A DNA stretch of 64,000 bases. It comes from Escherichia phage EJP2. The position numbers were made by a program, and so were the translations under genes. The stretch lies in sequence record OQ411014.1, one strand, 5' to 3'. Positions 18,940 through 37,905 of the stretch are shown in pieces (the first letter of the stretch is position 1; each line of letters opens with the position of its first letter). Below the pieces are notes generated by a model. That model worked only from the letters and a program-made list of their open reading frames with translations, had not been told where the DNA came from and ran no database searches.

Positions 18940-18940
18940 T

Positions 18941-19937: not shown

Positions 19938-19962
19938 CATAGGGGGAATCTTCCCCTATAAT
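19934..19962 (+). promoter_or_regulatory. sigma70-type promoter TTGACA N17 TATAAT with hairpin in spacer
   Basis: GGGGGAATCTTCCCC inverted repeat sits in the spacer. Confidence 0.5.
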
Positions 19963-19989
19963 TAATTCATACAAAACGCAGAGGTTAAC

Positions 19990-20691: not shown

Positions 20692-20710
20692 ACAAACATA
20701 GGAACAGAAA

Positions 20711-20905
20711 ATGAAATTTTTTGAACGTATCGTCGCATCAATCAAAGCATATCTTGGTAACAACAACACAGGCCCAGGTGAGCTAGAGTGCTGGCGTGAT
20801 TGGGATAAACGTATGGATAGTATTGTTCCAGCGGCACATCCTAAGACGTATGACCGTTACGACCCGAAGTACAATCTTCATGAAAAAATTGAAAAAGATT
20901 CATAA
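20711..20905 (+). CDS. hypothetical protein (64 aa)
   Basis: ORF track; TAGGAA RBS. Confidence 0.5.
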   Translation: MKFFERIVASIKAYLGNNNTGPGELECWRDWDKRMDSIVPAAHPKTYDRYDPKYNLHEKIEKDS

Positions 20906-20910
20906 AAAAA

Positions 20911-20939
20911 TGAGACAAACTGGAAAATTGTGATATAAT
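20911..20939 (+). promoter_or_regulatory. extended -10 promoter (TGAGAC N~17 TGTGATATAAT)
   Basis: Third copy of TGTGATATAATATAA block; followed by ~95 nt leader with hairpin. Confidence 0.45.
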
Positions 20940-21036
20940 ATAATTATCCAAACATCGTCGGATGTAAAACGAAAAACTCACAGCGTTCAATCATTTGAAC
21001 GCAATTCTATAGAAAAGTAATAAAAGGATTTATAAA

Positions 21037-21258
21037 ATGGCTAACGAACTAAACCAAACCGCAGTAATCGCTGACATTTCCGATGTAGAACGTACCATGA
21101 ACTACATTCAATTCCAACTAAGTCAAGCAGATGCTGAATTGGCTACCTTTGCTGGTACAGATGCTAAGAAAATCTGTTATGTTCACCTACTTGCTTGGAA
21201 GCAAGAGCTACAAACTGAACTACATGAACTACGCAAAGCTCTAAAGCGTAAAGCATAA
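21037..21258 (+). CDS. hypothetical protein (73 aa)
   Basis: ORF track; AAAGGA RBS; host-like codon usage. Confidence 0.5.
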   Translation: MANELNQTAVIADISDVERTMNYIQFQLSQADAELATFAGTDAKKICYVHLLAWKQELQTELHELRKALKRKA

Positions 21259-21261
21259 GTT

Positions 21262-21296
21262 CATAATGAATGCCATCCACATGGGTGGCATTTTTA
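21262..21296 (+). terminator. rho-independent terminator
   Basis: ATGCCATCC/GGGTGGCAT hairpin followed by TTTTT. Confidence 0.5.
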
Positions 21297-21319
21297 AACT
21301 TACCTATTTGGAGATTATA

Positions 21320-21568
21320 ATGAAACAAGGCGATTTGGAGCAACAAGTCAAACATCTACACAAACGTATTGAGCAGATGAAAGCCCAACGTACAGAAGCG
21401 TGGAGTAAATGGCAAGAACTACAAAACGTACAAGCAACTCGTGAAATTCAAAAAGAAATTTCTTCTCTTTCTGGATTGATTTGTTCTCTGAACTATAGTA
21501 TTATGGGTACTCAGAAGACGTACAAAGAAGCGTGTTCCGAATTGATTTCATTCATCACTAAAGGGTAA
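21320..21568 (+). CDS. coiled-coil protein (82 aa)
   Basis: ORF track 21266..21568 trimmed to ATG after GGAG RBS (track start lies in terminator). Confidence 0.5.
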   Translation: MKQGDLEQQVKHLHKRIEQMKAQRTEAWSKWQELQNVQATREIQKEISSLSGLICSLNYSIMGTQKTYKEACSELISFITKG

Positions 21569-21573
21569 TAACA

Positions 21574-22101
21574 ATGTCAATTGAAATGATTTTTCTGTTC
21601 TCATGTTTAGCTTTCCTGGGTGCGTTCATTGTACTGCTAACTATCAGTACTGCGGTAATTGGTTCTAACAAAGCACTTCGTTTGCAATACATGATGAGTG
21701 CTCTGAAGAAAGATAAGAACGTTACTGATATCGTTGAGCATATCTTAGCTAAAGAAGAAGTAGGTCTTCTTGAAGTTTCACTATCTGGTAATCGCTTACG
21801 TTTTTATGAAGTAGGTGAAGTTCCAAATGATGGTCTTTCCTGGAGCAACCGTAACTCACATAGTGTTTCTATTTGGATTGGTAATCGTTATTCTAACTAT
21901 GGTTATATCGAGAAGTACTATTCCGAAGATGATTCACAGTTCGACGGTAAGTGTCCAGCATATAAGACTTGGTTGAAACTGATTGCACTTGAACAAAGGA
22001 TTGCAAACAAAGAAACTGGTATCAATACCGACAAGACCAAAGCTAAGAAAGAAACTACTTACAAAGCTGAAAAGAACAAAGTAACAGAAATCGAATTATA
22101 A
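21574..22101 (+). CDS. membrane-anchored protein (175 aa)
   Basis: ORF track; N-terminal transmembrane segment. Confidence 0.55.
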   Translation: MSIEMIFLFSCLAFLGAFIVLLTISTAVIGSNKALRLQYMMSALKKDKNVTDIVEHILAKEEVGLLEVSLSGNRLRFYEVGEVPNDGLSWSNRNSHSVSIWIGNRYSNYGYIEKYYSEDDSQFDGKCPAYKTWLKLIALEQRIANKETGINTDKTKAKKETTYKAEKNKVTEIEL

Positions 22102-22104
22102 TCA

Positions 22105-22127
22105 AAAGGGGTCTTGTGCCCCTTTTT
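22105..22127 (+). terminator. rho-independent terminator
   Basis: AAAAGGGGTC/GTGCCCCTTTTT hairpin. Confidence 0.55.
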
Positions 22128-22144
22128 CGTGTAAGGAAATGAAT

Positions 22145-22444
22145 ATGAGTATTCACCAAACTATTGTTGATAAACTCCAAGAAGTTCTCGATGAAGTTCA
22201 AGAACTTCCTGCTGGATATCAGTACAAGATTCGTGAGTTATGTTCTTGTATTGAAACTGTTGTTAGCATGTATGAAGATGTTCAGAAGGGTATCATCCCT
22301 GAAGTTTTCAAAAAGAATACGGCACAGCATGTAGATGCAGCAGAACATGAAGTTCAGGATGAACCACAGCCTGTTCAAGAAGTAAAAGAAGAAGTAAAGC
22401 CCATAAAGAATGATGTGTTGAATATCCCTAACATCGAGCTATAA
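22145..22444 (+). CDS. hypothetical protein (99 aa)
   Basis: ORF track 22139..22444, ATG with better spacing to AAGGA RBS preferred. Confidence 0.5.
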   Translation: MSIHQTIVDKLQEVLDEVQELPAGYQYKIRELCSCIETVVSMYEDVQKGIIPEVFKKNTAQHVDAAEHEVQDEPQPVQEVKEEVKPIKNDVLNIPNIEL

Positions 22445-22446
22445 TT

Positions 22447-22947
22447 ATGATAAACCCAAAGGTACTCAAAACTATAAAAGACGAATTGACAGTACTGCAA
22501 AGTACTATCCCAATGACTCGTAATAGTGGTGTACACAATTCAACAAAGAAGACTACCGTATTCATACCCATTGATGGTGTTAGTGGTGAAGATATAAATC
22601 TCACAGTGAACACGTATCATAATGGAGAGACATTCTTTGATGGTAAGTGTAGTAACATTCATATACTCGTTGTGGGTAGAAATGATGATGTTGATGCAGC
22701 GGGGAATCGATATTCTTCATTTTTCGAGATTGACATATATCGAGATAGATTGTTCATGCCTGGAATGAATGGTGAAGGATCTATCGATTTCAGTATGTTC
22801 TCTGACGATTATGAAATTAGTGAAAAAGAATTGTTTGAATTTTTCCTAGTTACTGATACAATGGGTTTACCAGATGACCTCATGTTGACTATCATCGAAG
22901 TTACACGAGTATTACAAGATACTGATACGTTTTCACCCATATTCTAA
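22447..22947 (+). CDS. FFQ-like family protein
   Basis: ORF track; C-terminal ISEKELFEFFLVTDTMGLPDD parallels 15312 protein FFQYSLVNDTMGLSFED. Confidence 0.55.
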   Translation: MINPKVLKTIKDELTVLQSTIPMTRNSGVHNSTKKTTVFIPIDGVSGEDINLTVNTYHNGETFFDGKCSNIHILVVGRNDDVDAAGNRYSSFFEIDIYRDRLFMPGMNGEGSIDFSMFSDDYEISEKELFEFFLVTDTMGLPDDLMLTIIEVTRVLQDTDTFSPIF

Positions 22948-22956
22948 GGAACAACA

Positions 22957-23229
22957 ATGCAAAATTTAGATGGCTTCAAACCTTTCTTCACTTTCTATGA
23001 CTTTGGTATTCGCAAAGAAGATGCTAAAGGTTTCTTACAATTTGGTGCTACTGTAGCAGGTTCCCCAAACAGTGGATATCATGTGTTCATTGCAGCACTA
23101 GGGAAACGTTCTAAAGTACTGGCAGACTTGGAACTCTTCCATAAGCTACATGTTGCGTTAGAAGATAATCAAGAGTTTTATGATTTGTGTGTTCAAATTG
23201 TAACAGAAAATCCAGAACGTAATAAATAA
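22957..23229 (+). CDS. hypothetical protein (90 aa)
   Basis: ORF track; TAAGGAA RBS. Confidence 0.5.
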   Translation: MQNLDGFKPFFTFYDFGIRKEDAKGFLQFGATVAGSPNSGYHVFIAALGKRSKVLADLELFHKLHVALEDNQEFYDLCVQIVTENPERNK

Positions 23230-23366
23230 TAATACCAAAAGAAGAATAACATAATTATATCCCTCCCCTACCTATGGGATTTGGTGTACTAGTACTGCAA
23301 TAGTACTGTACATCCCGTTGGTAGACAACTTGTGTATCTCCTGCACATATAAACATCCGCAAACTG

Positions 23367-23396
23367 TCCAGCTTTATGCTGGACTTTTTGTTTTTA
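23367..23396 (+). terminator. rho-independent terminator
   Basis: GTCCAGC-TTTAT-GCTGGAC hairpin followed by T-run. Confidence 0.5.
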
Positions 23397-23438
23397 TGCT
23401 GTTATAATTTAAGTATTAACAACCATAAAGAGATAATC

Positions 23439-23828
23439 ATGAAAGCTGAACTATATGATTTATTGTTACAATCATTGAAGACTGAATTTGTATTTGACTT
23501 CAAGAACCCAACTGGCTCAATTGTATTCACGAACAAGATCGTTTATGCCAAAGCTGAAGGCGGGGCATCTGTAATCTACGTACCGTATGAAGGTCAATCA
23601 TTTTATGTGTGTATCTATCCTGACACAACAGATTACGTTACAGTAATGTACATGTCAGGTGATGATTTTGAAGAAAAAGAGGGCAGTACTGAATCTTTTG
23701 GTACATTCAAAATGATCAGTACTGAAGAAGAGTTCTTCATGAAGAGTACTATCAACGATATGAATCATTCTTTTGAATTGATCAGTACTCTTCATGAACT
23801 CCAGAAAGAACTTGACCAGTATTTGTAA
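23439..23828 (+). CDS. FFQ-like family protein
   Basis: ORF track 23376..23828 trimmed (track start inside terminator); motif STEEEFFMKST. Confidence 0.55.
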   Translation: MKAELYDLLLQSLKTEFVFDFKNPTGSIVFTNKIVYAKAEGGASVIYVPYEGQSFYVCIYPDTTDYVTVMYMSGDDFEEKEGSTESFGTFKMISTEEEFFMKSTINDMNHSFELISTLHELQKELDQYL

Positions 23829-23834
23829 GGACAG

Positions 23835-24170
23835 ATGATGTTAGAACTACTAGAAACAATCCTGTACGCAGCTAGAGCAGAACGATATGATAAACTCGAT
23901 GCACTAGCACCTAAAGTGTTTTATGGTCGAGAAGGTGATGCGATATTGTCCTTTACTATCATGACAGAAGAAAACTTTTCTATCATGATTAGGGCAACAC
24001 ACGTCATTGACTGTCGTTGTAAAAACTGGTCTGACGCAACATTGAAGTACGGTTACAAGGAAGATGAATTCTTCTTAGAATCACTCAAGCGTGAAATACA
24101 TTTTTCCTATGAAGAATATCTACTTGCACAAAAAATTTCAGAAGTTCTAAAAAGACTCGCATATAAATGA
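23835..24170 (+). CDS. FFQ-like family protein
   Basis: ORF track; motif YKEDEFFLESL. Confidence 0.55.
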   Translation: MMLELLETILYAARAERYDKLDALAPKVFYGREGDAILSFTIMTEENFSIMIRATHVIDCRCKNWSDATLKYGYKEDEFFLESLKREIHFSYEEYLLAQKISEVLKRLAYK

Positions 24171-24196
24171 GAAATTTAGGATAAATGTGATATAAT
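24168..24196 (+). promoter_or_regulatory. extended -10 promoter (TGAGAA N17 TGTGATATAAT)
   Basis: Fourth copy of TGTGATATAATATAA block; followed by ~140 nt leader with two hairpins. Confidence 0.45.
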
Positions 24197-24338
24197 ATAA
24201 TTATTAGGGACATTCGTCCCAACCGCCCTCACTGAAGCATGGTCAGACTCAGTGAGCACACTACGGGTGCTCTGACTGGTAAATGGAGGCTACCATAGAT
24301 GTAGCCTCCAATTTATCCTTAAACAAAAGGAGAGCAAA

Positions 24339-24785
24339 ATGAAATTCAACAAAATTCAGTTAGTGTTTGAAAACTGTGAAACTTTAGTTATTAATGCATC
24401 TGATATTGTTACATTGAAGACTTCACCAGCCCAAACTTCTTATCACAAGAACTACGGTAACAGTATCATTGAAGAACATGAAATCAAACACATCTTCCTG
24501 GCAGTGAAGAATGGCACTAAGGCTGATCCTGATTCTGTGTCATGGGACGATGACAGTACTGTGCGATTCCGTAATGACGTTACGAACATTACCTTCATTA
24601 GTGATAATGAAAGTAAAAACTACGTAGTTCGTTGGGAAGAGAGTAATACTAATAATTACTCATCTGCGTATCAGCGTTGCACAACCACTCTAGATGGTCA
24701 TCAAGTCTGGATCAACTCATCTGATGTTATTATGGATTTGCAAATTTCTGACGTTGATGAGTTAGCATCGTTTATGAATATCTAA
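24339..24785 (+). CDS. hypothetical protein (148 aa)
   Basis: ORF track; AAGGAG RBS. Confidence 0.55.
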   Translation: MKFNKIQLVFENCETLVINASDIVTLKTSPAQTSYHKNYGNSIIEEHEIKHIFLAVKNGTKADPDSVSWDDDSTVRFRNDVTNITFISDNESKNYVVRWEESNTNNYSSAYQRCTTTLDGHQVWINSSDVIMDLQISDVDELASFMNI

Positions 24786-24794
24786 GGAAATCAA

Positions 24795-25157
24795 ATGACA
24801 AAGCACCGTACATTACATAATGCAATAAAACATGTTCATACTAATATCAGTACTATCATGTCTAACCAGCCATATATATGCGGTGCTTTGGAATTCACAT
24901 CTCTAGGACACCAAACTGTCCACGCATACGAACTCTTCTGGAACACCCACAGAGCCATTACTATTGATATGTATGAGAATCACATGGCCTTCAAATCATG
25001 GAACGTTGATACGTACCGATGGATGGATGTGTGCAAGATAAGTTATGACATCACCAGGGAAGAGTTCGATCAGTTGTTGTTCGTTCATGACTTACGTACT
25101 TTGGAGTTCAAATCATTCAAGTACCTAAAGCTCATCAAAGAACACATTTTCAGTTGA
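24795..25157 (+). CDS. hypothetical protein (120 aa)
   Basis: ORF track. Confidence 0.5.
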   Translation: MTKHRTLHNAIKHVHTNISTIMSNQPYICGALEFTSLGHQTVHAYELFWNTHRAITIDMYENHMAFKSWNVDTYRWMDVCKISYDITREEFDQLLFVHDLRTLEFKSFKYLKLIKEHIFS

Positions 25158-25210
25158 CAATGATTTGTTATGATGTATAATACTAACAAATAACACAGAG
25201 GATTGAAAAC

Positions 25211-25639
25211 ATGTCATTAGAAGCTAAAGTACATTTCAAAGATACGTGGATTGACTTAACCACCAATACAGTACTGAACAATGAATTCAGTACACAAACT
25301 CTTTCTGCTGATACAGTAGAAGAACTAACCAAAGATGTTAAGCAACTCATCTCATCACGTGTTGGCTCTGACGTATACAACGCTCAACGCCATATTACTG
25401 AATTGTTAGGTGTAGATGGTATTGAATACCAGATGCAGTACAAAATGAGCAAAGAAGAGATGTTTGACTTCATTTTGACTAACAATGTAGAAATCACACG
25501 AGATGGTGCTGTTTGGACTAAAACTGACGGTCGTAAAGTTCGTGTGAAATATTCTGTCAAGATCAATGATTTGAACTTAGCTGGATATGATTTAGAAGAA
25601 GCTATTCAGTACTATCACGATACGAGAGGTTCACGATGA
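25211..25639 (+). CDS. hypothetical protein (142 aa)
   Basis: ORF track; promoter TTGACA N16 TATAAT at ~25154. Confidence 0.55.
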   Translation: MSLEAKVHFKDTWIDLTTNTVLNNEFSTQTLSADTVEELTKDVKQLISSRVGSDVYNAQRHITELLGVDGIEYQMQYKMSKEEMFDFILTNNVEITRDGAVWTKTDGRKVRVKYSVKINDLNLAGYDLEEAIQYYHDTRGSR

Positions 25640-26028
25640 TTGTAGTTGCAGTATTACTTGGATTTGCTATAATGGCTATAACGTTACGTCTTAACGGTTA
25701 CTACAGAGACGAACGATTTCGCATTGAGCGAGAGAAAGAACGTGACTTGCACAAAGAAATATATAAAGCACATGAGCCAGTAAAATCACCATATGAAGTT
25801 CGATTGTCTTTGAGTAAGGACAAGAAGTTGGGTTATGCAGTGTATGACCACAGTGTGGGGCATTTTGCGAACTCAAATGGTGTTTTTATGTGGTTTCCTG
25901 ATTCGAAAAGTGCTATGATATTTCAAACAACACTGGAAGTGATTGGTTCATATCCACTAACGTACAAAGAATATCTAGATGTAATTCTTCCTGAAGTACT
26001 AAACCAAGAGAAAACTGAGGAAAAATAA
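25636..26028 (+). CDS. membrane-anchored protein (130 aa)
   Basis: ORF track; N-terminal TM; related to next gene (shared RWGYAIWD / KLGYAVYD segment). Confidence 0.5.
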   Translation: MIVVAVLLGFAIMAITLRLNGYYRDERFRIEREKERDLHKEIYKAHEPVKSPYEVRLSLSKDKKLGYAVYDHSVGHFANSNGVFMWFPDSKSAMIFQTTLEVIGSYPLTYKEYLDVILPEVLNQEKTEEK

Positions 26029-26379
26029 ATGTTAGCTGCAATCATCTGTACTGTTATCTTTTCTGCAACGTATTATATTTGCCAGAAGAAACGTACTGAA
26101 GCGTTTGAAACAGCACAAGCTAATCAACTAGAACTTGAGCGTTCTATGTTGATACAGGAGTCCAATGAGGGTAAAGAAGATTCCCCATTCCTCATTAAAC
26201 GTGTAGAATGTAATGGTCGCTGGGGTTATGCAATTTGGGATAAACGTATTTCTGATTATGCTAACATCTCTGACCAAAAGATTGAATTCTTCAGGACATT
26301 GGCTGCGGTTTATTGTATTATGAACGAAATAGAAACTTTTGAGAACTTTAAAGTTACTAAACCTATGCATACATTATAA
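26029..26379 (+). CDS. membrane-anchored protein (116 aa), paralog of previous
   Basis: ORF track; N-terminal TM. Confidence 0.5.
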   Translation: MLAAIICTVIFSATYYICQKKRTEAFETAQANQLELERSMLIQESNEGKEDSPFLIKRVECNGRWGYAIWDKRISDYANISDQKIEFFRTLAAVYCIMNEIETFENFKVTKPMHTL

Positions 26380-26390
26380 GGAGATATAAG

Positions 26391-26537
26391 ATGATTACTG
26401 TACAACTAAATGGTGTAGAACTAGAACTATCTGTCAAGGATGCAGAGAAACTAGTAGAAGAACTGAACTTCAAAATCAACGAGTACTATTACAGTACTAC
26501 TAACGTTCCTGACTCGGAAATCCTATACCGCGAGTAA
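26391..26537 (+). CDS. small hypothetical protein (48 aa)
   Basis: Uninterrupted frame found by hand; strong AAGGAG RBS; below ORF-track cutoff. Confidence 0.45.
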   Translation: MITVQLNGVELELSVKDAEKLVEELNFKINEYYYSTTNVPDSEILYRE

Positions 26538-26540
26538 ATC

Positions 26541-26942
26541 ATGCAAGAAGAAGATATTGTCGATATACTGAAGGGTGTAGTCAAAGAAATCAGAGATAAT
26601 GGTGAATGCAAACAATGTAGGTTCACCATCAATGATGGTAATGGTTCTGATGGCTCATTTCTTATGCAGTTTGAGAATATGACACTTACCATTTACCCGA
26701 CTTCAGTTATAACAAATCAGTTCGAAACAAATTCAGTGAATTACTTTCGGCGGCATCCAAACGATACAGAAGAACAGTACTTCGCTAGAATGCTAACAGG
26801 CACTGAGAGTATAATTTCTCCCAGTACTGAATTAGTACTACAAAGATTCTTTTTCGTTGTCATTACATTCATTCGTGATGGTCTATCCATGTTTCACGAT
26901 ACAGTCTGGACTGGCAATGCATACTACGATGACCAATTATAA
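26541..26942 (+). CDS. FFQ-like family protein
   Basis: ORF track; motif DTEEQYFARML. Confidence 0.55.
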   Translation: MQEEDIVDILKGVVKEIRDNGECKQCRFTINDGNGSDGSFLMQFENMTLTIYPTSVITNQFETNSVNYFRRHPNDTEEQYFARMLTGTESIISPSTELVLQRFFFVVITFIRDGLSMFHDTVWTGNAYYDDQL

Positions 26943-26956
26943 GTTAGGAGATATAT

Positions 26957-27754
26957 ATGATTTTTGATAAAGTTAGTTTTCCTGCACATGCCTTCACTCA
27001 TGCGATTGTAGAAGACACAACTCTGTACGTGTACCTTAGTACTGGTAAGTGTATTGATATTGAATACGATAGCAATGACGCAGCAGAATACGCACTACTA
27101 CGCATTGATGCAGCCGTTTCACAATCCAATCCAGCACAAGAAGTTGTGTACGATGTGAAAGGTAAGATCACTGACATTGTGGGTTCTCTGAAAGAAAAAG
27201 TACTAGACGTTGCTAAAGATAAGGTCAAGAAAACTGCTCAAGAGAAAATCCAAGACACCATTGAAGAACGTGCACAGAAAATGTACGATGACCTACAGAA
27301 TGCACTAACTAACACCAAAGGTGTAGTTCAGAAGGTAGATGATATTTTCAGTACTATCTTTAGTGTTGGTGCACCCACTGAAGAAGAAAAACCTAAAGCA
27401 AAACCAGAAGTGAAACCTTCCCAACCTAAGAAGAAAACATACAAGCATTTTGGTGAAGATTTTTACAGTACTGTAAAAGTAACTGACCAACCGCGTGATC
27501 TAGACGGTCATCAACTACTCAATACTAAAGTATCTGATTTGACCCTGGATGAACTACGTACTGCTGTTGGTTTTGGTATTGATGATGCAATTTCTAACAA
27601 TCCAAATGTTAGTGAAAGTATCAAGATGATTGTGAAAACATTTGGTGCACAAGAAACTGAAGAAGCAATGACTTATCTAAAAGACCTGATTGTGGATTAT
27701 GCACAATCACAACCGAACGCAACCGTTCGACAAGCAATCGCTAAATTCTTGTAA
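26957..27754 (+). CDS. hypothetical protein with K/P/E-rich linker (265 aa)
   Basis: ORF track; TAGGAG RBS. Confidence 0.6.
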   Translation: MIFDKVSFPAHAFTHAIVEDTTLYVYLSTGKCIDIEYDSNDAAEYALLRIDAAVSQSNPAQEVVYDVKGKITDIVGSLKEKVLDVAKDKVKKTAQEKIQDTIEERAQKMYDDLQNALTNTKGVVQKVDDIFSTIFSVGAPTEEEKPKAKPEVKPSQPKKKTYKHFGEDFYSTVKVTDQPRDLDGHQLLNTKVSDLTLDELRTAVGFGIDDAISNNPNVSESIKMIVKTFGAQETEEAMTYLKDLIVDYAQSQPNATVRQAIAKFL

Positions 27755-27759
27755 TAAAA

Positions 27760-27785
27760 AAGGCTCCTATAAAGGAGCCTTTTGT
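27760..27785. terminator. bidirectional rho-independent terminator
   Basis: AAAAAGGCTCC/GGAGCCTTTT hairpin between convergent genes. Confidence 0.6.
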
Positions 27786-27786
27786 T

Positions 27787-28929
27787 TTAATCTTTTCCAG
27801 CAATTACGATAGAACCAGCAAACCCATCGAGGGCTGTTAGTACTATATCATCTGCGTCATTAACCTGAACCTGAACAGTACAAACTGATGTACCATCATA
27901 TACAGTATATGACATATTGGATTTACCATGTTGTGCTTTGGTAATAGAAGCACTTGAGGAACCATCACCATTTGGTGTCCATGATAGAGCAGAACGGAAT
28001 GGAACACTTTGAGATGTTTTACCAATAATAACAACAACAGCGGCAGACGCAGCACTTTGTGTAACAGTAATGTTACCACTTGCATCTACGTCTACAGTAC
28101 TGAATTGTACTGCGTCATCTTGAGGTTCATGTAACTGAACAACCAGGTCCGCACCACGTCCGTGAATGATAGCAGGAACAGTAGCTTTGTACTGACCATC
28201 TGATTGTATTGCAAAATCAGCAGGAGCAATGTTGATTGAAGTTACATAGTCAGAATCAGCACCATCTGCATATACAGGGAATTGTACTTGAATTTCATTG
28301 TAATTCGGTGAAGTAATTGTTATAGTAGCTGTACCAGTTTGGGAGATAACCACTGGAGAAATACTGAATGTTCCATCTGGATTAACAGTACCTTCATATT
28401 CAGAACCATCTGGTAGAACAATTTTAACAACCATATCAGTAACGTCTAGAGCACCCGAACTAGAGGTGATAGCACCACTAATTTCAGTATCATTAACGTG
28501 AACTGGATTGATTACGATGTTGTCAATATCTGGTAGAGGGATAGTACATGTAGGTGTGTACATATCATAAAGCGTTTTACCAGTACTGAGAATTATTTTG
28601 TTCAATAGGAAACGAATGACGAAACCTTCCTTGGTCTTTTGATCATTGTAACCCCTTACAAAGAAGGTATTGCGTGGAATCTTAGCCAAGATTTGATCGT
28701 TATTTTCTAGATAATCCAGAACTCTACCCTCGGTGTCATAACCAGTGAGTAGTACTTTTTGATAAATTGTGTTTGTCGCAGGATCAATAAGGTCGAACAT
28801 TACATCAGAACGTTGTTTGTATATACGTAACATCTTTTTCTTTGTAAAGTCTCGCAGATATGCCCCATCAACTACAAATCCACAAACCCCATAAGGATAA
28901 TCCCCAACCCCAGCTATCGGTTTAGCCAT
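27787..28929 (-). CDS. Ig-like domain protein (possible virion decoration or adhesin)
   Basis: ORF track 27787..29025 trimmed to ATG (MAKPIAG) preceded by AAGGAG RBS; S/T/V/G-rich beta-sandwich-like repeats. Confidence 0.55.
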   Translation of the reverse strand: MAKPIAGVGDYPYGVCGFVVDGAYLRDFTKKKMLRIYKQRSDVMFDLIDPATNTIYQKVLLTGYDTEGRVLDYLENNDQILAKIPRNTFFVRGYNDQKTKEGFVIRFLLNKIILSTGKTLYDMYTPTCTIPLPDIDNIVINPVHVNDTEISGAITSSSGALDVTDMVVKIVLPDGSEYEGTVNPDGTFSISPVVISQTGTATITITSPNYNEIQVQFPVYADGADSDYVTSINIAPADFAIQSDGQYKATVPAIIHGRGADLVVQLHEPQDDAVQFSTVDVDASGNITVTQSAASAAVVVIIGKTSQSVPFRSALSWTPNGDGSSSASITKAQHGKSNMSYTVYDGTSVCTVQVQVNDADDIVLTALDGFAGSIVIAGKD

Positions 28930-29049
28930 AGATAAACTCCTTTTTTTGTTTTTCATTATGAACGTATTTACCCCTTGACATGTGATTATGCTTGTATTAT
29001 GATACATGCATTGATTGACGCACATGTAATAAAGAACATTAAATGTGTG

Positions 29050-29078
29050 TTGACAGTACTGAATGACTGCTCTATAAT
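29050..29078 (+). promoter_or_regulatory. sigma70-type promoter TTGACA N17 TATAAT
   Basis: Canonical hexamers; CAGTACTG abuts -35. Confidence 0.55.
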
Positions 29079-29123
29079 ACTTACATCAACTACGAACTTA
29101 AAGAAACCATAAGGAATACTAAA

Positions 29124-29702
29124 ATGACTACTCGCTTAAAAATCGTTGACAACAAAATGTCCATCAGCCTGTTCAAAGACGAAGCTGATTCTTACATGGC
29201 TAAAGCAATGGCTAAATCACAGCGTTATAACAACATGCTGAATGGTCGTAAAGCTCCTTACGGTCAGAACCACCCACACAGCCACTACGTTGGTATGGTT
29301 GCTGAACACGCTACTTTAGTACTGATGGAAGAAATCGAACAGCTTCTGAACATTGATATGAAAATCGATGCAGTGTTCCTGGACGACAAGCGTGACAAAG
29401 AATGTGATATCGTTGTGAATGGTCTGCGTATTGAAGTAAAATGCATCAAGTACGGTTCATGGGTAAAATTCGGCCCTTGCATTACTGCCGCTCAACGTAA
29501 GAACATTGAACGCAAAGCTGATGTAGTACTGTGGGCTGTATACAACGAACGTAAACAATCCTTTACGTTTGAAGGTTTCAACCGTGTAGAAGACATTGCT
29601 AACATCCCAACTGAAATGACTGGTGTCCAAGGTCGTGAGAAGATCGAAAACCATCCAGTAATGAGTATCATCAAACCTTTACAGGAGATGCAATTTTGCT
29701 AA
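29124..29702 (+). CDS. hypothetical protein (192 aa), host-optimal codon usage
   Basis: ORF track; TAAGGAA RBS; CTG/CGT/GGT/AAC-rich codon usage unlike neighbours. Confidence 0.6.
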   Translation: MTTRLKIVDNKMSISLFKDEADSYMAKAMAKSQRYNNMLNGRKAPYGQNHPHSHYVGMVAEHATLVLMEEIEQLLNIDMKIDAVFLDDKRDKECDIVVNGLRIEVKCIKYGSWVKFGPCITAAQRKNIERKADVVLWAVYNERKQSFTFEGFNRVEDIANIPTEMTGVQGREKIENHPVMSIIKPLQEMQFC

Positions 29703-29905
29703 AATATTTCTTACACTTCGAAGATGATGATGAGTTTATTGTGGTACGTGAATTTACATTACCACATAAACCACAGAAAGGTGATTTCATTACAATTGGA
29801 ACTGAATACCATTCAGTACAATATGTAGTTCAAGAAGTCGATACGTTCCTTGATATTGAAAGTGCAGCGTATAGTGTGAATGTTCATTTGGAAAAACGAA
29901 AATAA
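29696..29905 (+). CDS. hypothetical protein (69 aa)
   Basis: ORF track. Confidence 0.45.
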   Translation: MLKYFLHFEDDDEFIVVREFTLPHKPQKGDFITIGTEYHSVQYVVQEVDTFLDIESAAYSVNVHLEKRK

Positions 29906-30252
29906 TGAAAATTGTATCAGTACTGGCTGGGTTGATTTTATGTAGTACTCAAGTATTGGCTAGTACAGTCGATACTGATGTGAATTATAAGAAAGAGTAC
30001 AAGACTGGTATTGCATCTGACCCATCATATTGTATTGGTTATGCGGATGCAAAGATGTTCCAGACAGGGAATCAGCAGTACTACGAATGGATGAAACAAT
30101 GGTACGAGGATCAAACTAGTAATACTGATTTGGTCATGAAGCCATTCAATCATCGTTCGTACGTTAACGGTACTGAAATGAATAATAACGATTTGACCGT
30201 TGAATGTGTAATGGAATTTGATTTCATTATCACTGACGAGGTACAACAGTGA
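29905..30252 (+). CDS. secreted protein (signal peptide)
   Basis: ORF track; N-terminus MKIVSVLAGLILCSTQVLAS. Confidence 0.5.
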   Translation: MKIVSVLAGLILCSTQVLASTVDTDVNYKKEYKTGIASDPSYCIGYADAKMFQTGNQQYYEWMKQWYEDQTSNTDLVMKPFNHRSYVNGTEMNNNDLTVECVMEFDFIITDEVQQ

Positions 30253-30258
30253 GGCTCT

Positions 30259-30723
30259 ATGAGTGTATTTGATTTGGTATCTAGTATTTCGTGGATTGAA
30301 GTAATAATCTTTATTGTACTTAGTGCAGTACTGTTCATGTTCATGTTCAACGATGATTACACGTACTGTAAAAAGATTCATAAAGCATGTGCAGAACCAG
30401 TATGGAAATCATTTTGGTATATGCAGTTCATCCCGAATAAGTTCATACGACCGTTTGAAAGCTGGTGTGATGTTTCAACCAGAACAGTCCCCACGATTGA
30501 AACGATTTTATCTCTCTATGAAGATAATCGAGATTCGTTGATTATCAAACTTATACCTACATTAGATGATGATACAATCGAATTCATATGCAAGAGATTA
30601 CCATCCGTATCAATTAGGGTTAGTAACAAAATGGTTGTGAACTACAGGACTGAGCATGTGATTCCACCACGAGTTCTTGTGGGTTTGTTGAATATGTACG
30701 AAATAGAACGAAAGAAAATCTAG
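30259..30723 (+). CDS. membrane protein (154 aa)
   Basis: ORF track; N-terminal TM. Confidence 0.5.
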   Translation: MSVFDLVSSISWIEVIIFIVLSAVLFMFMFNDDYTYCKKIHKACAEPVWKSFWYMQFIPNKFIRPFESWCDVSTRTVPTIETILSLYEDNRDSLIIKLIPTLDDDTIEFICKRLPSVSIRVSNKMVVNYRTEHVIPPRVLVGLLNMYEIERKKI

Positions 30724-30780
30724 ACATATACTTTGAGTGTGTTATAATACAGTCATCAAATAACAAGAAGAGAGGTTTAT

Positions 30781-31230
30781 ATGAACGTACTAGGAACGAA
30801 GTTCAGTACTGCAATGGGTGCACGTAATGGTTGGTTTACTATCAATGAAGTACTGGACGATACTTTCAAACATTACACGTTCAATCAGTGCCTAAAACTC
30901 AAAGTAACTCCAGAAACTAAAGATGACATGAACTTCATCGAGTGGGTTATGTATTGGGAAGGTTCACCCGTTGCAGTGCATTTACACGTTCTAACTACAG
31001 TATTGAGTACTGGTTATGTGAAAGCAACTGTCATCTCTAAGCGTCATGTATTCACTGATGAAATTGGTGAATTCCCAGGTAAACAAGCAATCATTGATGG
31101 TTACATGATTGATGGGAAATTCATGGATAAGAAGGGTGCAGAGGCATATCATACTCGTAAGCTAATGAACGGGAACTTCCGTCCAGCAGCTAAGATCCCT
31201 GATGCAGTCATTCAACCTAAACGTAAGTAA
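30781..31230 (+). CDS. hypothetical protein (149 aa)
   Basis: ORF track. Confidence 0.55.
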   Translation: MNVLGTKFSTAMGARNGWFTINEVLDDTFKHYTFNQCLKLKVTPETKDDMNFIEWVMYWEGSPVAVHLHVLTTVLSTGYVKATVISKRHVFTDEIGEFPGKQAIIDGYMIDGKFMDKKGAEAYHTRKLMNGNFRPAAKIPDAVIQPKRK

Positions 31231-31279
31231 TGTAGTCCCTCCTTAACTGGGGGGATTTAAACACATAAGGACAAAATAA

Positions 31280-31705
31280 ATGTTCAAATATTGTTTCCGT
31301 ACGTATGTAGTACTGTTCTTAGTACCAGCACTGTACTTGATTACTGCACAACTTAGTAAAATCTTCGAAAGTCTTAGCTTTTTGAATTTTACTGCACCAG
31401 AACAGTACAAAATTCTATTGACAATAATGTACGTTTTTTCTTTCATATTGTCAGTACTGATCATTTTCAATTCAGGATGTGACTACCGAGAGTTTCATAT
31501 TTTCAGAAACTTCAAGAACGTAACGTACTCAAAGTTCTGGAGTTATATACTCGCAGTCCCTGTTGTATTGAATTTCCATATTGAGGGCTTCTCGTTCACA
31601 ACTTTTATGCTCTTCATTGAACCAATTGCAATCTATATGTACATCCATCAACATAACCGATTCGTATTGAGTCATAATCTAGTCCACGTAGAGGAACAAC
31701 CATGA
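31280..31705 (+). CDS. multi-pass membrane protein (141 aa)
   Basis: ORF track; several hydrophobic helices. Confidence 0.5.
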   Translation: MFKYCFRTYVVLFLVPALYLITAQLSKIFESLSFLNFTAPEQYKILLTIMYVFSFILSVLIIFNSGCDYREFHIFRNFKNVTYSKFWSYILAVPVVLNFHIEGFSFTTFMLFIEPIAIYMYIHQHNRFVLSHNLVHVEEQP

Positions 31706-32199
31706 ATACGTATATCAGTGGGTTTTACAAGTACTACCTATCGTTCATAACTATATTTGCTATTCTGTTATTGAATGAAACAGAACAATTTGGATCAAAA
31801 TTCCTATCAGAAGGACTAGGAATCTTCCTTCAGGTTATCTTTGCACTGATGGCTGCTATATCAATGCCAGTACTGATCTATGGTATTCATCTTGTTGCGA
31901 GCGATGACCAGGATAGTAAGGACTCGTGTATCCGTGAGTACTGCCAAGCAGCAAAATACAGTACTATAAGTTCTATGATACCGTTTAGTCTAATTATTGT
32001 GTCCATCGCTATGTTCCAATGGAATCTGTGGTTCTTGGGTACGTTTGGATTTATTATGGGTTGTAGTATGTACGTGTATACTAAAGTACTATACAGAGGT
32101 GAGAAACTATTCACTGAAATGGAAGCCCGTAAAGGAACCAAAGCACCAGTTCAACGAGAAGAGCGAGATTATTTCGCACCAGACGATGAGTTACCTTGA
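31702..32199 (+). CDS. multi-pass membrane protein (165 aa)
   Basis: ORF track. Confidence 0.5.
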   Translation: MNTYISGFYKYYLSFITIFAILLLNETEQFGSKFLSEGLGIFLQVIFALMAAISMPVLIYGIHLVASDDQDSKDSCIREYCQAAKYSTISSMIPFSLIIVSIAMFQWNLWFLGTFGFIMGCSMYVYTKVLYRGEKLFTEMEARKGTKAPVQREERDYFAPDDELP

Positions 32200-32224
32200 C
32201 ACGTACCTGAAGAGTAGCTATAAT
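32196..32224 (+). promoter_or_regulatory. sigma70-type promoter TTGACA N17 TATAAT
   Basis: Canonical hexamers upstream of 32260 gene. Confidence 0.55.
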
Positions 32225-32259
32225 ACTTTCATTGAAGCGAAACTAACAAAGGAAACATA

Positions 32260-32514
32260 ATGGATACCGTACAGATTGAATCTTTGACTTCACTTGTTCT
32301 TGATAATGTAAAAGCTGAAGAAGAAATTTCAGTACAAATCAAAGCAGAGTATCAGTGCATTACTGAAAAGCTCCAAGATGCGAAGTACACTGTAACGAAA
32401 GAAATTGAAGAGCATTATAAGAACATTGAACGTCTGTTCCGTGTCAAGCAAGAACACATTGTTCGTCAGAATAACGCTAAGACTGCAATCAATAAACTTC
32501 TGGGAATCGCATAA
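32260..32514 (+). CDS. hypothetical protein (84 aa)
   Basis: ORF track. Confidence 0.5.
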   Translation: MDTVQIESLTSLVLDNVKAEEEISVQIKAEYQCITEKLQDAKYTVTKEIEEHYKNIERLFRVKQEHIVRQNNAKTAINKLLGIA

Positions 32515-32993
32515 TGAAAAACGTACAACAATACATTCAGAACTTCACCGCATATCCAGTATCAGTAATGTTCGGACATATCGATACACCTACTCCTAAG
32601 CAGAAGAAAGCGGAGAAACGTGTAGCAGAAATCTGTGAAGAACTGTATCGTTTTGATTGTACAGTACTATCAGATGTGCGAGCAGCATTCCGCGAGTTAG
32701 ATGTTCTTATCTCCTTGAGTGATGATAAGTTCCGCATCAAGCAAGTGCGTCTAACTCGTATGACTGGTCGTTTGGCATATTTTGTTGACAAAGCGGTTGT
32801 AATGCTCGATAATATGCACAAGAAAGACCAGCAACTTCAGCAGTACTGGCAACCGCTGTCAATGAAAGCTAAAGTACTGAAGGATGAAATCAAATCATTC
32901 CTTATCCAGTACGATACTTCAGTTGATAAGATTGTATTACTGTCTGAATTTGACAATGCATACAAAGAAGCCCAAGAGGAAGATAAGAAATGA
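32514..32993 (+). CDS. hypothetical protein (159 aa)
   Basis: ORF track. Confidence 0.55.
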   Translation: MKNVQQYIQNFTAYPVSVMFGHIDTPTPKQKKAEKRVAEICEELYRFDCTVLSDVRAAFRELDVLISLSDDKFRIKQVRLTRMTGRLAYFVDKAVVMLDNMHKKDQQLQQYWQPLSMKAKVLKDEIKSFLIQYDTSVDKIVLLSEFDNAYKEAQEEDKK

Positions 32994-33490
32994 CAACTGT
33001 TTTCGTGAGTAAAGAATTAGGAATTGCTATTACTGACTCACGAGCCACGTTTCAAGAGTCCAGGAAGTTTCTTGGGCTTTTTAACTTGACTCCATTACCA
33101 TCGTATAAAGTTGTGAATCAAAAGGCTTTGTATGTTCATGACCGTTTATTCTTAGCATGTGGAAGTGTAGATACTATTGATAAAGTATTGCAATATTTCA
33201 TCGACGGTACTAAGTTCAAGATAAACAAGAAAACTCCAAGCTGTGAGTGTCTTCTTCTTGGTAAAGAATACGGTGTACACTTGTACGTGTGGAATGGTAA
33301 GATTCATAAGAAGACTATCTTCTTGGCGTATAATTTTGTACACTTCATGGGGTCTGGTAGTTCTGCCCTACTCAGAAAGTACTACAAGACTTTAGAACGT
33401 AATACACCAGATGAAGTTATTGATATTTTCAAGACTGTACATTTGGATGATAGCTTCACTGACGATAACGTAAATTTATACAGAATCTAG
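32990..33490 (+). CDS. hypothetical protein (166 aa)
   Basis: ORF track. Confidence 0.55.
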   Translation: MTTVFVSKELGIAITDSRATFQESRKFLGLFNLTPLPSYKVVNQKALYVHDRLFLACGSVDTIDKVLQYFIDGTKFKINKKTPSCECLLLGKEYGVHLYVWNGKIHKKTIFLAYNFVHFMGSGSSALLRKYYKTLERNTPDEVIDIFKTVHLDDSFTDDNVNLYRI

Positions 33491-33519
33491 TTGACAGTCT
33501 AAAAGAGATATCATATAAT
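33491..33519 (+). promoter_or_regulatory. sigma70-type promoter TTGACA N17 TATAAT
   Basis: Canonical hexamers upstream of small ORF and sigma gene. Confidence 0.55.
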
Positions 33520-33549
33520 CATTGCATACCACAACGAGAGAGAAACAAA

Positions 33550-33696
33550 ATGAGTACATTCATCGTAGAATATGTTCTGACTGGTCAAAGCATCTGGCAG
33601 GTACAAATGGTAAAAGCATGTAATAAAGAGCAAGCCCAGAGCACGCTCAAGAAAATGATTTCTGGTGTAGTAACCACCAAAGCATACCCAGCATAA
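33550..33696 (+). CDS. small hypothetical protein (48 aa) upstream of sigma factor
   Basis: Uninterrupted frame found by hand; followed by terminator hairpin AATCCGC-TCTGT-GCGGATT plus T-run. Confidence 0.4.
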   Translation: MSTFIVEYVLTGQSIWQVQMVKACNKEQAQSTLKKMISGVVTTKAYPA

Positions 33697-33758
33697 TTTA
33701 GAGCTATAATGAATCCGCTCTGTGCGGATTCTTTTTTTTAATATCAAAGGAGAAAGTA

Positions 33759-34751
33759 ATGACTGTAAAACAACTCAATCTAGAATCTATTCAAGACGAT
33801 ATCATGGATGAATGTTTTGTAAATGAAAACAATACGTTCGAGCGTATTAGTGAACAGTCACATGACAGTACTGAAGAAGTAGAAGAAAGTACTGATGACG
33901 TAGGTTCTTTCAAGACTTACAACACATCTAGCGTTTTACCAGAAGGTGAGACGAATGAATCTATTATTCGTTTAATCCGTGACGGTATCAATGTGAAGCG
34001 TAACATTGACCTTATCGTACGTAACAACGTAGGCTTAGTATATAGCCAAGCACGTCAGTGTACTTGTAATATCCCATTCCAAGATAAAGCACAGTACGCT
34101 TTTGAAGGTCTAATGCGTGCAATCCATCGTTATGATGTGAATCAGAATATTCTTTTCAGTACTTACGCTACTGTGTCTATTCGCCAAACACTCTATAACT
34201 TTGGTAATGATGAAGTTCGTCTAATCAGTATTCCACGTCACTTGTCAGTGGATAACATCAAGATTCAGAACTACATTGAGAAGCATCGTTCTAAGTTCGG
34301 TCGTACCCCAAGTGAAGATGAAATCAGTACTGCTACTGGCATCAAGTTATCCGCAGTGAAACGTGTAGTGCAGTACATGAACAGTAAGCCAATGAGTTTC
34401 GATACTCCAATGGGTTCTGACAGTACTGAAAACGATATGAGCTTAGTGGATGTAATCCCAGGAACTTCCAATGATTACACACTAAGTGCAGATACAGTTC
34501 AGAAAGCACCACTAGATGTAATTGCATTGGTCATGTCTGAACTACCAGAAGAAGAGCAGTTGCTGATCAATAAGATTCACGGCTTGAATGGACATGAAGA
34601 AAGTACTTTTATTGCTCTAGAGACTGCTGGATTGGTAGATGCGAAGGGTAAGAAGCTAACTAACCGTTGCACTATTCATCGTCGTTACAATGCAATACTG
34701 GATAAGATTCGTAATATTCTAAAAGCACGTGACATTTCATTCGATGACTGA
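33759..34751 (+). CDS. RNA polymerase sigma factor, sigma70 family
   Basis: Region 2 match VGLVYSQARQ..FEGLMRAIHRYD..FSTYATVSIRQT and C-terminal region-4-like helix-turn-helix; AAGGAG RBS. Confidence 0.7.
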   Translation: MTVKQLNLESIQDDIMDECFVNENNTFERISEQSHDSTEEVEESTDDVGSFKTYNTSSVLPEGETNESIIRLIRDGINVKRNIDLIVRNNVGLVYSQARQCTCNIPFQDKAQYAFEGLMRAIHRYDVNQNILFSTYATVSIRQTLYNFGNDEVRLISIPRHLSVDNIKIQNYIEKHRSKFGRTPSEDEISTATGIKLSAVKRVVQYMNSKPMSFDTPMGSDSTENDMSLVDVIPGTSNDYTLSADTVQKAPLDVIALVMSELPEEEQLLINKIHGLNGHEESTFIALETAGLVDAKGKKLTNRCTIHRRYNAILDKIRNILKARDISFDD

Positions 34752-34911
34752 TATGATTCGTTACAAGGCAAACAAAGTACAAGGAACTGCTGTTGTAGTT
34801 TTCTTGTACTGGACTGAGAATCCGGTCTATGTTCTGGCAGAGAACAGTACTGTATCGCTGTCGGAGTTCATTGATATAGCAATTGAAGAATTCAAATCAT
34901 TAGAGGAATAA
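34744..34911 (+). CDS. small hypothetical protein (start uncertain)
   Basis: ORF track 34729..34911 (GTG); internal ATG chosen; weak RBS. Confidence 0.35.
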   Translation: MTDMIRYKANKVQGTAVVVFLYWTENPVYVLAENSTVSLSEFIDIAIEEFKSLEE

Positions 34912-34915
34912 TACT

Positions 34916-35287
34916 ATGTTGCACAAAGTTGAAGGTTCAAAGCACAATTGGATTGACGAATACGATATCTATGTTGGGTATGATACTTCCCCGTGTTGTT
35001 GTGAATATGCGGATTACTTCTTGAGTTATGAGATTGAGAGGAATGGAGTACCAGACGAAGAACTAATTGATAAAAGTACTTTCAAATGGGAAGAATACGA
35101 CTTCTATCCATTCGCATCTGCACTGATCGAAAACGTCCCAGGACTTGATGAAGGTGCTATTGCGATGTTCCCAATGATCCACAAAACGACTTCCCGTATG
35201 GTGTACTTGCACTTGTTTAACGCTCACAATGGTTATTACAGCCACGGGTTCGAAAGCAATACATTCATTGGTAACGGTTCTTTATAA
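34916..35287 (+). CDS. hypothetical protein (123 aa)
   Basis: ORF track; AGAGGA RBS. Confidence 0.55.
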   Translation: MLHKVEGSKHNWIDEYDIYVGYDTSPCCCEYADYFLSYEIERNGVPDEELIDKSTFKWEEYDFYPFASALIENVPGLDEGAIAMFPMIHKTTSRMVYLHLFNAHNGYYSHGFESNTFIGNGSL

Positions 35288-35296
35288 GGAATTTTT

Positions 35297-35470
35297 GTGA
35301 AAACTAAAAACTCAAAATCTTTAGGTACATATGTGAATGGTAATCGCTATGCGAAAATCAGTACATGTATTGATTGCAGTACTGGAAATACTTTATACTA
35401 TTACTGTATTCCTGGTGAGCGGGTGTATATCAGTTCAGAAGAATTCAAGAATGAATGGGTAAAAAACTAA
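35297..35470 (+). CDS. small Cys-containing protein (57 aa, GTG start)
   Basis: Uninterrupted frame found by hand; TAAGGAA RBS. Confidence 0.35.
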   Translation: MKTKNSKSLGTYVNGNRYAKISTCIDCSTGNTLYYYCIPGERVYISSEEFKNEWVKN

Positions 35471-35476
35471 AACAAA

Positions 35477-35512
35477 ATGCTTGACTTCGGTCGAGCATTC
35501 TTTTAATATAAT
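35477..35512 (+). promoter_or_regulatory. terminator-promoter module (hairpin containing -35 TTGACT, T-run, -10)
   Basis: ATGCTTGAC-TTCG-GTCGAGCAT hairpin then TTTT then TAATAT. Confidence 0.5.
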
Positions 35513-35549
35513 TGCATCAACTACACTACTACACTTGAGGATAACAATC

Positions 35550-35990
35550 ATGGCTTGGATTCACAGCAATCATTCTGAACTGAACAATTTCGATATCTTT
35601 GCATTCGTGAACATGCAAGAGAAGATCTTCATCAAAGGACGTCTCTGCACGCTCTCTGACGGCTCACGGGCCATCTGTAACATGAACAACAAGGGTGAAG
35701 TACTGGATATCGTTGCTCTTCCTGCGTGGGCTACTGTGCAGCCTGAAGAGGCACTTATGCGTCTACTCTTTGAAGAGATTGGTAAACTTCCAGGTACTGA
35801 TGTGGAGAACAAACTCTTCAACATCAAACACTCCAAGTACAGTGCTGACCAATTATCTGGTTTAACTGATACAGTACTGAAAGAAGTTGTAAGTAATCAA
35901 TGTAACGTAATTCTTAAGTACGTTCCTGAACTGGAACTGACTGAAGAAATGCTAGTGGAATTTGACATCAACGCTAAGGGTTCTCTATGA
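35550..35990 (+). CDS. hypothetical protein (146 aa)
   Basis: ORF track 35481..35990 trimmed (track start is the TTG of the promoter -35); ATG after GAGGA RBS. Confidence 0.55.
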   Translation: MAWIHSNHSELNNFDIFAFVNMQEKIFIKGRLCTLSDGSRAICNMNNKGEVLDIVALPAWATVQPEEALMRLLFEEIGKLPGTDVENKLFNIKHSKYSADQLSGLTDTVLKEVVSNQCNVILKYVPELELTEEMLVEFDINAKGSL

Positions 35991-36349
35991 GACTAATCCT
36001 GTTACTGATTTTGTTAGTAACTGCACAGACGATACCATCTGATTCATATATCGATATAAATCCAGCACGTGAGTTCATTATTTGTACAGACAGAGTAGAC
36101 AGTACTAAAAAGATTGAAGTCCTCTTCGATTCAAGTACTCCAGAATATGTAGTGACGAACAAAGTACAGTACAAATTCATTTCTCACGAAGTTATTGGGG
36201 ATGTAGATGTACTTCAATATAAGTTCGGTTCAAAGACTATGAATTTTGAATTTATTATGCAAGGTGATAAAGTATCTTCTATTCGATTGGAAGTACTTGG
36301 TGCTATCCCTGGTATGGAATTCATGGATGGGGAGTGTAAACTGCTATGA
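35987..36349 (+). CDS. secreted protein (signal peptide)
   Basis: ORF track; N-terminus MRLILLLILLVTAQT. Confidence 0.5.
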   Translation: MRLILLLILLVTAQTIPSDSYIDINPAREFIICTDRVDSTKKIEVLFDSSTPEYVVTNKVQYKFISHEVIGDVDVLQYKFGSKTMNFEFIMQGDKVSSIRLEVLGAIPGMEFMDGECKLL

Positions 36350-36690: not shown

Positions 36691-36693
36691 TAA

Positions 36694-37023: not shown

Positions 37024-37029
37024 TTCTAA

Positions 37030-37058
37030 TTAATGCTCACTTCGGTGAGCATTTTTTT
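37030..37058 (+). terminator. rho-independent terminator
   Basis: GCTCAC-TTCG-GTGAGC hairpin followed by TTTTTTTT. Confidence 0.6.
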
Positions 37059-37903: not shown

Positions 37904-37905
37904 CT

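Follow-up and report, generated by a model that had tools for sequence, protein, structure and literature searches.

The minus-strand gene at positions 27,787-28,929 of the 64,000-nucleotide stretch of Escherichia phage EJP2 that we analysed (OQ411014.1; hereafter the window) is, by sequence comparison, the orthologue of a proteomically confirmed virion-protein family in RaK2-like jumbo phages. We consider it likely that its 380-aa product is made late and sits on the virion surface of this RaK2-like jumbo myophage as a Hoc-like decoration protein or adhesin, encoded in an insulated late island.

The coding sequence (27787..28929, minus strand) was delimited from its open reading frame, start, PHROG match and orthologues. 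The mechanically called ORF, which begins upstream of the chosen ATG, covers 27787..29025 on the minus strand (412 aa). The correct start is 28929 (MAKPIAG...), as chosen in the sequence-only reading, because a Shine-Dalgarno AGGAG (28937-28941, minus strand) lies 7 nt 5′ of this ATG, residues M1, A2, P4, I5, A6 and G7 are invariant or nearly so in a 65-sequence alignment, and the N-terminal motif is kept across the wider family. No hydrophobic signal peptide was seen on inspection of the N-terminal sequence (MAKPIAGVGDYPYG...). The protein consists of 10.5% valine, 9.2% aspartate, 8.9% threonine, 8.7% isoleucine, 7.9% serine and 7.6% glycine; an earlier label of Ser/Thr/Val/Gly-rich was only roughly right, the actual order being V/D/T/I/S, with glycine behind.

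A survey of minus-strand ORFs with an ATG start and at least 90 aa in the region 1..48,800 identified the target as the only long, overlap-free one, in agreement with the earlier description of it as the sole sizeable minus-strand gene in about 48 kb. The remaining minus-strand ORFs lie within plus-strand ORFs for 71-100% of their length, except for a 93-aa ORF at 40697-40978. No significant PHROG match was obtained for the minus-strand ORFs at 40697-40978, 50671-50952, 16745-17161 and 50014-50373. The first minus-strand genes past the target are 48861-50039 and 62571-63701, both encoding RCC1-like beta-propellers. These two were ruled out as paralogues of the target; they are unrelated to it and akin to each other (31% identity). 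A tblastn search with the target protein found no paralogue elsewhere in the 64-kb window. RCC1-like proteins are present in phAPEC6 virions (PMC7247149).

The target matches phrog_10468, annotated as "virion structural protein", with an E value of 3.4e-127, residues 1-379 aligning to profile positions 1-383 of 384. Orthologues were found in 65 RaK2-like phage records from several genera at 42-59% identity, with 60 phage records covering at least 80% of the query, and a further 65 full-length homologues are mostly metagenomic. In protein-level searches, the target and a second protein of the window matched RaK2-like jumbo myophages only (310-386 kb), including Hallingskeid, fENko-Kae01, 7t3, BF, GAP32, CBB, fHe-Yen9-04, PBECO4/121Q and phAPEC6, and the closest relative of the target was found in Erwinia phage Hallingskeid (59% identity). 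A megablast search of positions 27000-30000 against the phage collection returned no nucleotide-level match. Named full-length orthologues of 374-384 aa are CBB_496 of Pectobacterium phage CBB, gp077 of phAPEC6 and BF_0488 of a Serratia phage; GAP32_475, g482c of Yersinia phage fHe-Yen9-04 and 121Q gp155 are further full-length orthologues. The CBB_496/gp077 orthologues resemble the target in having an N-terminal module followed by three Ig-like domains, a lone opposite-strand site and an upstream TAAATAC. Presence in the particle is documented by non-quantitative mass spectrometry of two of these orthologues: in purified CBB virions, 4 peptides of CBB_496 covered 17.5% of the protein (PMC5259590), and in phAPEC6 virions 10 unique peptides of gp077 covered 37.8% (PMC7247149).

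The genomic position is conserved as well. The orthologue is a lone opposite-strand gene in all five annotated relatives examined (Hallingskeid, CBB, fHe-Yen9-04, phAPEC6 and BF). Orthology of the flanking genes was compared with CBB and phAPEC6: the right-hand plus-strand gene, 29124-29702, is 59% identical to CBB_497, and the left-hand plus-strand gene, 26957-27754, aligns over nearly its full length with phAPEC6 gp078c and CBB_494. The left-hand gene (phrog_14991), convergent with the target and on the early strand, encodes a lysine/glutamate-rich protein whose orthologues gp078c (PMC7247149) and CBB_494 were detected by virion mass spectrometry; no TAAATA motif was found within 110 nt upstream of it. 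The right-hand gene encodes a conserved 192-aa protein (phrog_16175) behind two near-consensus sigma-70 promoters, with a D...EVK motif that is reminiscent of PD-(D/E)xK nucleases.

An AlphaFold2 model of the target built on the 65-sequence alignment reached a mean pLDDT of 87. It begins with a low-confidence peptide (residues 1-16), followed by an all-beta domain that ends near residue 123; a short linker then leads to three beta-sandwich domains at about 135-220, 229-302 and 311-377. The Ig domains that had been proposed from the sequence were borne out, all three of these beta-sandwiches being Ig-like, and the protein has the Ig-like fold of phage surface proteins in the sense of Fraser et al. 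2006. Ig-like domain 1 (residues 135-222; 28264..28527, minus strand) is a beta-sandwich of the Bap C-repeat/CarboxypepD_reg type. Ig-like domains 2 (residues 223-304; 28018..28263, minus strand) and 3 (residues 305-380; 27790..28017, minus strand) are duplicates of each other, with H256, R258 and G259 nearly invariant in the former and H334 and K336 in the latter. The repeat-like beta-sandwich segments noted earlier are thus real for this pair, which was aligned by hhalign with a probability of 97% and an E value of 4.6e-11. Individual database matches were sub-threshold: CarboxypepD_reg in Pfam reached 18.7 of the 32.3 bits required, and the NCBIfam model Ca_tandemer, a "Ca2+-stabilized repeat", 17 of 50 bits (E 0.0055). 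A Foldseek search of BFVD returned uncharacterised paralogues and generic Ig-repeat proteins, and nothing else. In both sequence profile and fold, domain 1 resembles the C-repeats of Staphylococcus aureus Bap and region II of M. primoryensis MpAFP. Such BIg-type adhesin repeats form long extender regions in secreted bacterial adhesins, whereas the target is a phage virion protein with one domain of this kind. The fold class, together with the domain shuffling described below, suggests that the target is exposed on the surface and may bind carbohydrates or cell surfaces.

Conservation is concentrated at the opposite end of the protein. Mean identity to the target is 82% over residues 1-17, 62% over the N-domain, and 46%, 42% and 41% over Ig-like domains 1, 2 and 3. 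The best-conserved segment, residues 1-17 (MAKPIAGVGDYPYGVCG; 28879..28929, minus strand), is predicted to be disordered in the monomer, with pLDDT below 50 for residues 1-16, and we propose that it may serve as the contact peptide for a partner in the virion. The all-beta N-domain that follows (residues 18-123; 28561..28878, minus strand) is the proposed virion anchor. It has neither a Pfam entry nor a solved structural relative, the latter result being weakened by the modest quality of the N-domain-only model (pLDDT 65).

To define the wider family, a profile of the first 132 residues was compared with 1.84 billion cluster representatives, which identified 93 proteins of 102-1859 aa. The weakest matches excepted, the N-domain in these clusters starts at most a few residues from the N-terminus and stops at about position 121, and the motif M-(G/A)-K-P-I-A-G..P-(F/Y)-G..G is conserved across the 93 representatives. 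What follows the N-domain varies. A Pfam scan of ten longer members placed Ig-type domains after it in eight, and the other two had no Pfam match; the types found in the eight were Big_2 (two to seven copies), Invasin_D3/Big_1, HYDIN/VesB-like Ig and fn3-like. Some members consist of the N-domain alone. One member (P0067) is 44% identical to the target over residues 1-121, with five Big_2 domains after that, and RaK2_00496 (212 aa) has the N-domain and one Ig-type domain, as judged from its sequence and database annotation. RaK2_00496 and the related N-domain plus Big_2 paralogues (phrog_33171) share with the target the N-domain, at 30-44% identity, and the arrangement as lone opposite-strand genes, and most of the paralogues checked have a TAAATA-type motif upstream with comparable spacing. 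They differ from it in their payloads (Ig-type arrays of one to seven domains, for instance Big_2, or Invasin_D3 arrays), in their locus, which adjoins a dCMP deaminase, and in lacking the Cys16/Cys128 pair of the target.

Those two cysteines (Cys16, 28882-28884; Cys128, 28546-28548; both minus strand) flank the N-domain, and all 65 full-length homologues have both. Across the wider N-domain family, Cys16 has mostly given way to other residues, and alignments there usually stop before position 128. The pattern suggests a subfamily-specific disulfide or another paired function. Tandem N-domain genes were also observed on two metagenomic RaK2-like contigs, L010 (476-5197; 240, 644 and 640 aa) and L011 (1-9162; 572, 875 and 1551 aa). 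The L010 array lies beside the dCMP deaminase gene, where RaK2 carries the single gene RaK2_00496. These arrays are a local diversification hotspot.

Taken together, a conserved module that is always N-terminal, combined with freely exchanged domains of an exposed type, points to an anchor-plus-display protein, and the N-domain family looks like a virion anchor with swappable display domains. The N-terminal module, that is, peptide 1-17 and the all-beta domain to about residue 123, would dock on the particle and fix the protein there. The three Ig-like domains would point away from the particle and probably bind carbohydrate-rich surfaces (host envelope, capsule or mucus) weakly and reversibly, in the manner of T4 Hoc and T5 pb10.

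The comparison with these two proteins is instructive with respect to domain order. In T4 Hoc, the capsid-binding domain is located at the C-terminus. Hoc and the target are similar in length (376 and 380 aa), each combines three Ig-like domains with one attachment domain, and the two appear alike as surface displays of the dispensable type that are made late, with a weak-adhesion role proposed for both. However, no homology to Hoc was found (hhalign probability 0.2%; best BLASTP E value 0.077 over 16 residues), and no Hoc PHROG was among the PHROG matches of the target. The domain order is also reversed, with Ig domains preceding the C-terminal anchor in Hoc and the non-Ig domain (residues 1-123) coming first in the target. 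Membership of the target in the Hoc family was rejected on both grounds, and the resemblance, as we read it, is one of analogy, not homology. T5 pb10 has an N-terminal capsid-binding domain followed by a solvent-exposed Ig-like domain, and the target resembles it in carrying its proposed N-terminal anchor before the Ig-like part.

With respect to the site on the particle, the earlier proposal of a capsid-decoration or adhesin module holds in part. Decoration or adhesion on the virion is favoured by the orthologues found in virions and by the Ig domains, but the capsid is not favoured over the tail, because tail and fibre proteins can have Ig-like arrays too. Our search of the work on phiKp24, phAPEC6 and CBB and of some further literature found no published placement of the family on a RaK2-like virion. 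We regard the centre of the capsid hexamer and the tail as about equally likely sites. The former is suggested by 10 Å maps of phAPEC6/121Q, in which a fibrous protein, unassigned, stands in the middle of each capsid hexamer (PMC7247149). We would advance only tentatively, as an idea that may well prove wrong, that the target family is this fibrous protein and that its N-module is an undescribed portable docking domain. With similar reserve, arbitrary Ig-like arrays (from 0 to more than 10 domains, up to 1859 aa) may be plugged through it onto one conserved site of the particle.

Alternatively, the target might be a tail-associated accessory, either decorating the sheath, collar or baseplate or anchoring or assisting the unusual tail hairs and fibres; we consider this possible, if somewhat unlikely. 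In phAPEC6, two levels of the tail bear decoration densities that have no protein assigned to them, and fibres occur at three annular positions (PMC7247149). For phiKp24, a relative of RaK2, the capsid at 4.1 Å was modelled from just the major capsid protein and needed no decoration protein in the model (PMC9700779). In addition, the Big_2 parts of N-domain paralogues match PHROGs labelled major tail, tail and tail fibre, and some record names read likewise. However, the "major tail protein" labels stem from the common Big_2 domain and not from a tail-tube fold, and the fibrous protein at the hexamer centres of phAPEC6/121Q provides an equally good fit on the capsid. The tail hairs of CBB are about 119 nm long (PMC5259590). 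As a candidate for the hair itself, the target was rejected, since a 380-aa, four-domain chain would span roughly 15 nm by our estimate.

A different role on the capsid, that of a cement or stabiliser essential for reinforcing the very large T=27/28 shell and not an adhesin, appears doubtful. Such a role would accord with the conservation of the gene throughout the clade and with an unassigned, elongated second-layer protein in phAPEC6 whose copy number equals that of the major capsid protein (PMC7247149). In this family, however, the C-terminal part is freely swapped for other Ig arrays, which have one to seven domains, and it is missing from some members that are N-domain only; the RaK2-type paralogue is just 212 aa long. 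Such swapping typifies dispensable display modules and not a cement that forms a lattice. We consider it very unlikely that the target is an internal head protein, packaged with the DNA and acting in the host after injection. Its gene does lie within the early, host-takeover region, the convergent neighbour 26957-27754 is likewise virion-associated (phAPEC6 gp078c) on the early strand, and these phages possess an inner body. Against this, tandem Ig-like sandwiches with Bap/BIg-type similarity characterise extracellular, exposed proteins, and varying numbers and types of Ig domain would be expected of surface display modules.

The favoured reading, a surface protein made late, would also account for the orientation of the gene in an early region. 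The description of the surroundings as an early-gene array fits the near-consensus sigma-70 promoters on the plus strand and the orthology to the early region of CBB: the window corresponds to CBB_390-546, the region taken as early in the CBB paper (PMC5259590). It contains dense short plus-strand ORFs, consensus sigma-70 promoters, a sigma-70-family factor and six tRNAs. The sigma factor gene lies within the array at 33759-34751 on the plus strand (Sigma70_r2 and r3 domains; phrog_351), and the six tRNA genes are located on the plus strand between 682 and 12769. Among the tRNA genes, tRNA-Ser (anticodon ACT; 11102-11191) is unusual; it overlaps an ORF at 11124-11594 and may have been called in error or be an odd tRNA. 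A 365-aa ORF similar to HNH/homing endonucleases (55095-56192, plus strand; phrog_559, E 8e-26) is probably a mobile element in the array.

Three kinds of signal flank the target. On its downstream side, an intrinsic terminator hairpin at 27758..27783 is bidirectional and lies between the target and the convergent plus-strand gene 26957-27754, as the sequence-only reading had it. Its GC-rich stem of 11 bp is predicted to fold with -16.8 and -17.0 kcal/mol on the two strands (folding z about -4.9; 0 of 200 shuffles folded equally well), and the tract behind it is U6 on the minus strand and UUUUGUUUU on the plus strand. Upstream of the target, the T4-type late-promoter-like motif TAAATAC occurs on the minus strand at 28964..28970 (-41 to -35). 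In an alignment of upstream regions that includes that of the target, TAAATAC is invariant 31-41 nt 5′ of the ATG in six orthologues. It lies at -31 to -37 in L001-L005 and also precedes most of the paralogues checked, and the motif reads ATAAATAC in CBB, fHe-Yen9-04, BF and phAPEC6. The target version, GGTAAATAC at -41, matches TATAAATA at 6 of 8 positions. The late promoter of the target is a putative one, defined by motif match, the motif of the window being GGTAAATA, which is short of the full TATAAATA. The form in CBB, fHe-Yen9-04, BF and phAPEC6 corresponds to an ATAAATA late motif reported for CBB and GAP32, which the CBB authors noted before structural genes and likened to the T4 late promoter TATAAATA; they also reported a gp55-like late sigma factor, CBB_244, the gene of which belongs to a relative and lies beyond this window (PMC5259590). 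Finally, two sigma-70-type promoters point away from the target on the plus strand. The first, at 28975..29003 (TTGACA-17-TATGAT, 11 of 12 matches), has its -35 hexamer 4 nt from the late motif on the opposite strand, and the second, at 29050..29078, agrees with the consensus at all 12 positions (TTGACA-17-TATAAT) and leads into 29124-29702.

Within the 64 kb, TAAATAC is present on the minus strand in only two copies, and the other is located at -35 of the RCC1-like virion gene starting at 50039 on the minus strand. The layout of the island is repeated there, over 48830-50114: besides TAAATAC it comprises a bidirectional terminator (48830-48859) and a plus-strand sigma-70 promoter (50086-50114). 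A further "virion structural protein" gene of 506 aa (phrog_20398) begins at 44121 on the plus, early strand, within 44042-45641. There, a terminator hairpin at 44042-44061 is followed by the only perfect TATAAATA of the window, 51 nt before the ATG.

These elements suggest how the island could operate. Early sigma-70 transcription arriving from the left would be halted at the two-way hairpin (27758-27783), the target would be read backwards from its own T4-type late promoter (TAAATAC, 28964-28970), and early transcription would be restarted by the two near-consensus promoters at 28975-29078. The target would then be expressed late, and its opposite orientation reads as a reflection of late versus early transcription, not of foreign origin.

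The sequence-only reading had instead suggested a moron-like insertion; the gene would then be foreign, newly acquired, equipped with a promoter and a terminator of its own and perhaps expressed on the surface of the infected cell. Its opposite orientation, its own terminator, a promoter-like upstream region and the frequency of Ig-like domains in bacterial surface adhesins speak for this idea, which is nonetheless contradicted by the orthologue in 65 RaK2-like records and its lone opposite-strand position in every annotated relative examined, the orthology of the compared flanking genes, orthologues detected in virions, an N-terminus that by inspection bears no signal peptide, a promoter motif of the phage's own late type that is conserved and common to other virion genes, and a native composition, and which we regard as most improbable. 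The GC and codon comparison behind this last point gave the target a GC content of 0.391 (z +0.7), and its codon usage agrees with that of the pooled plus-strand genes to a slightly above-average degree (z +1.2). Its GC3 is low (0.239; z -2.0), and the other virion genes of the window are similarly low (0.176, 0.223 and 0.278). Native composition, clade-wide synteny and a phage-type late promoter together rule out a recent foreign insertion.

None of these findings overturns current understanding, but they correct the annotation of the target, which is a core structural gene of RaK2-like jumbo phages, probably late, and not cargo. They also indicate a layout rule, whereby virion genes inside the early region are reversed, placed under a T4-type late promoter and enclosed between a two-way terminator and strong promoters that restart early transcription. 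The family, with its proposed N-terminal anchor and Ig array, is a candidate for the unassigned surface densities on these giant particles. If the docking reading is true, it would be an analogue of T4 Hoc that arose independently with the domain order reversed, and jumbo phages would have in it a ready-made display scaffold. If the anchor site is mapped, the family might also find use in phage display, or in therapeutic jumbo phages whose adhesion, for instance to mucus, is to be adjusted.
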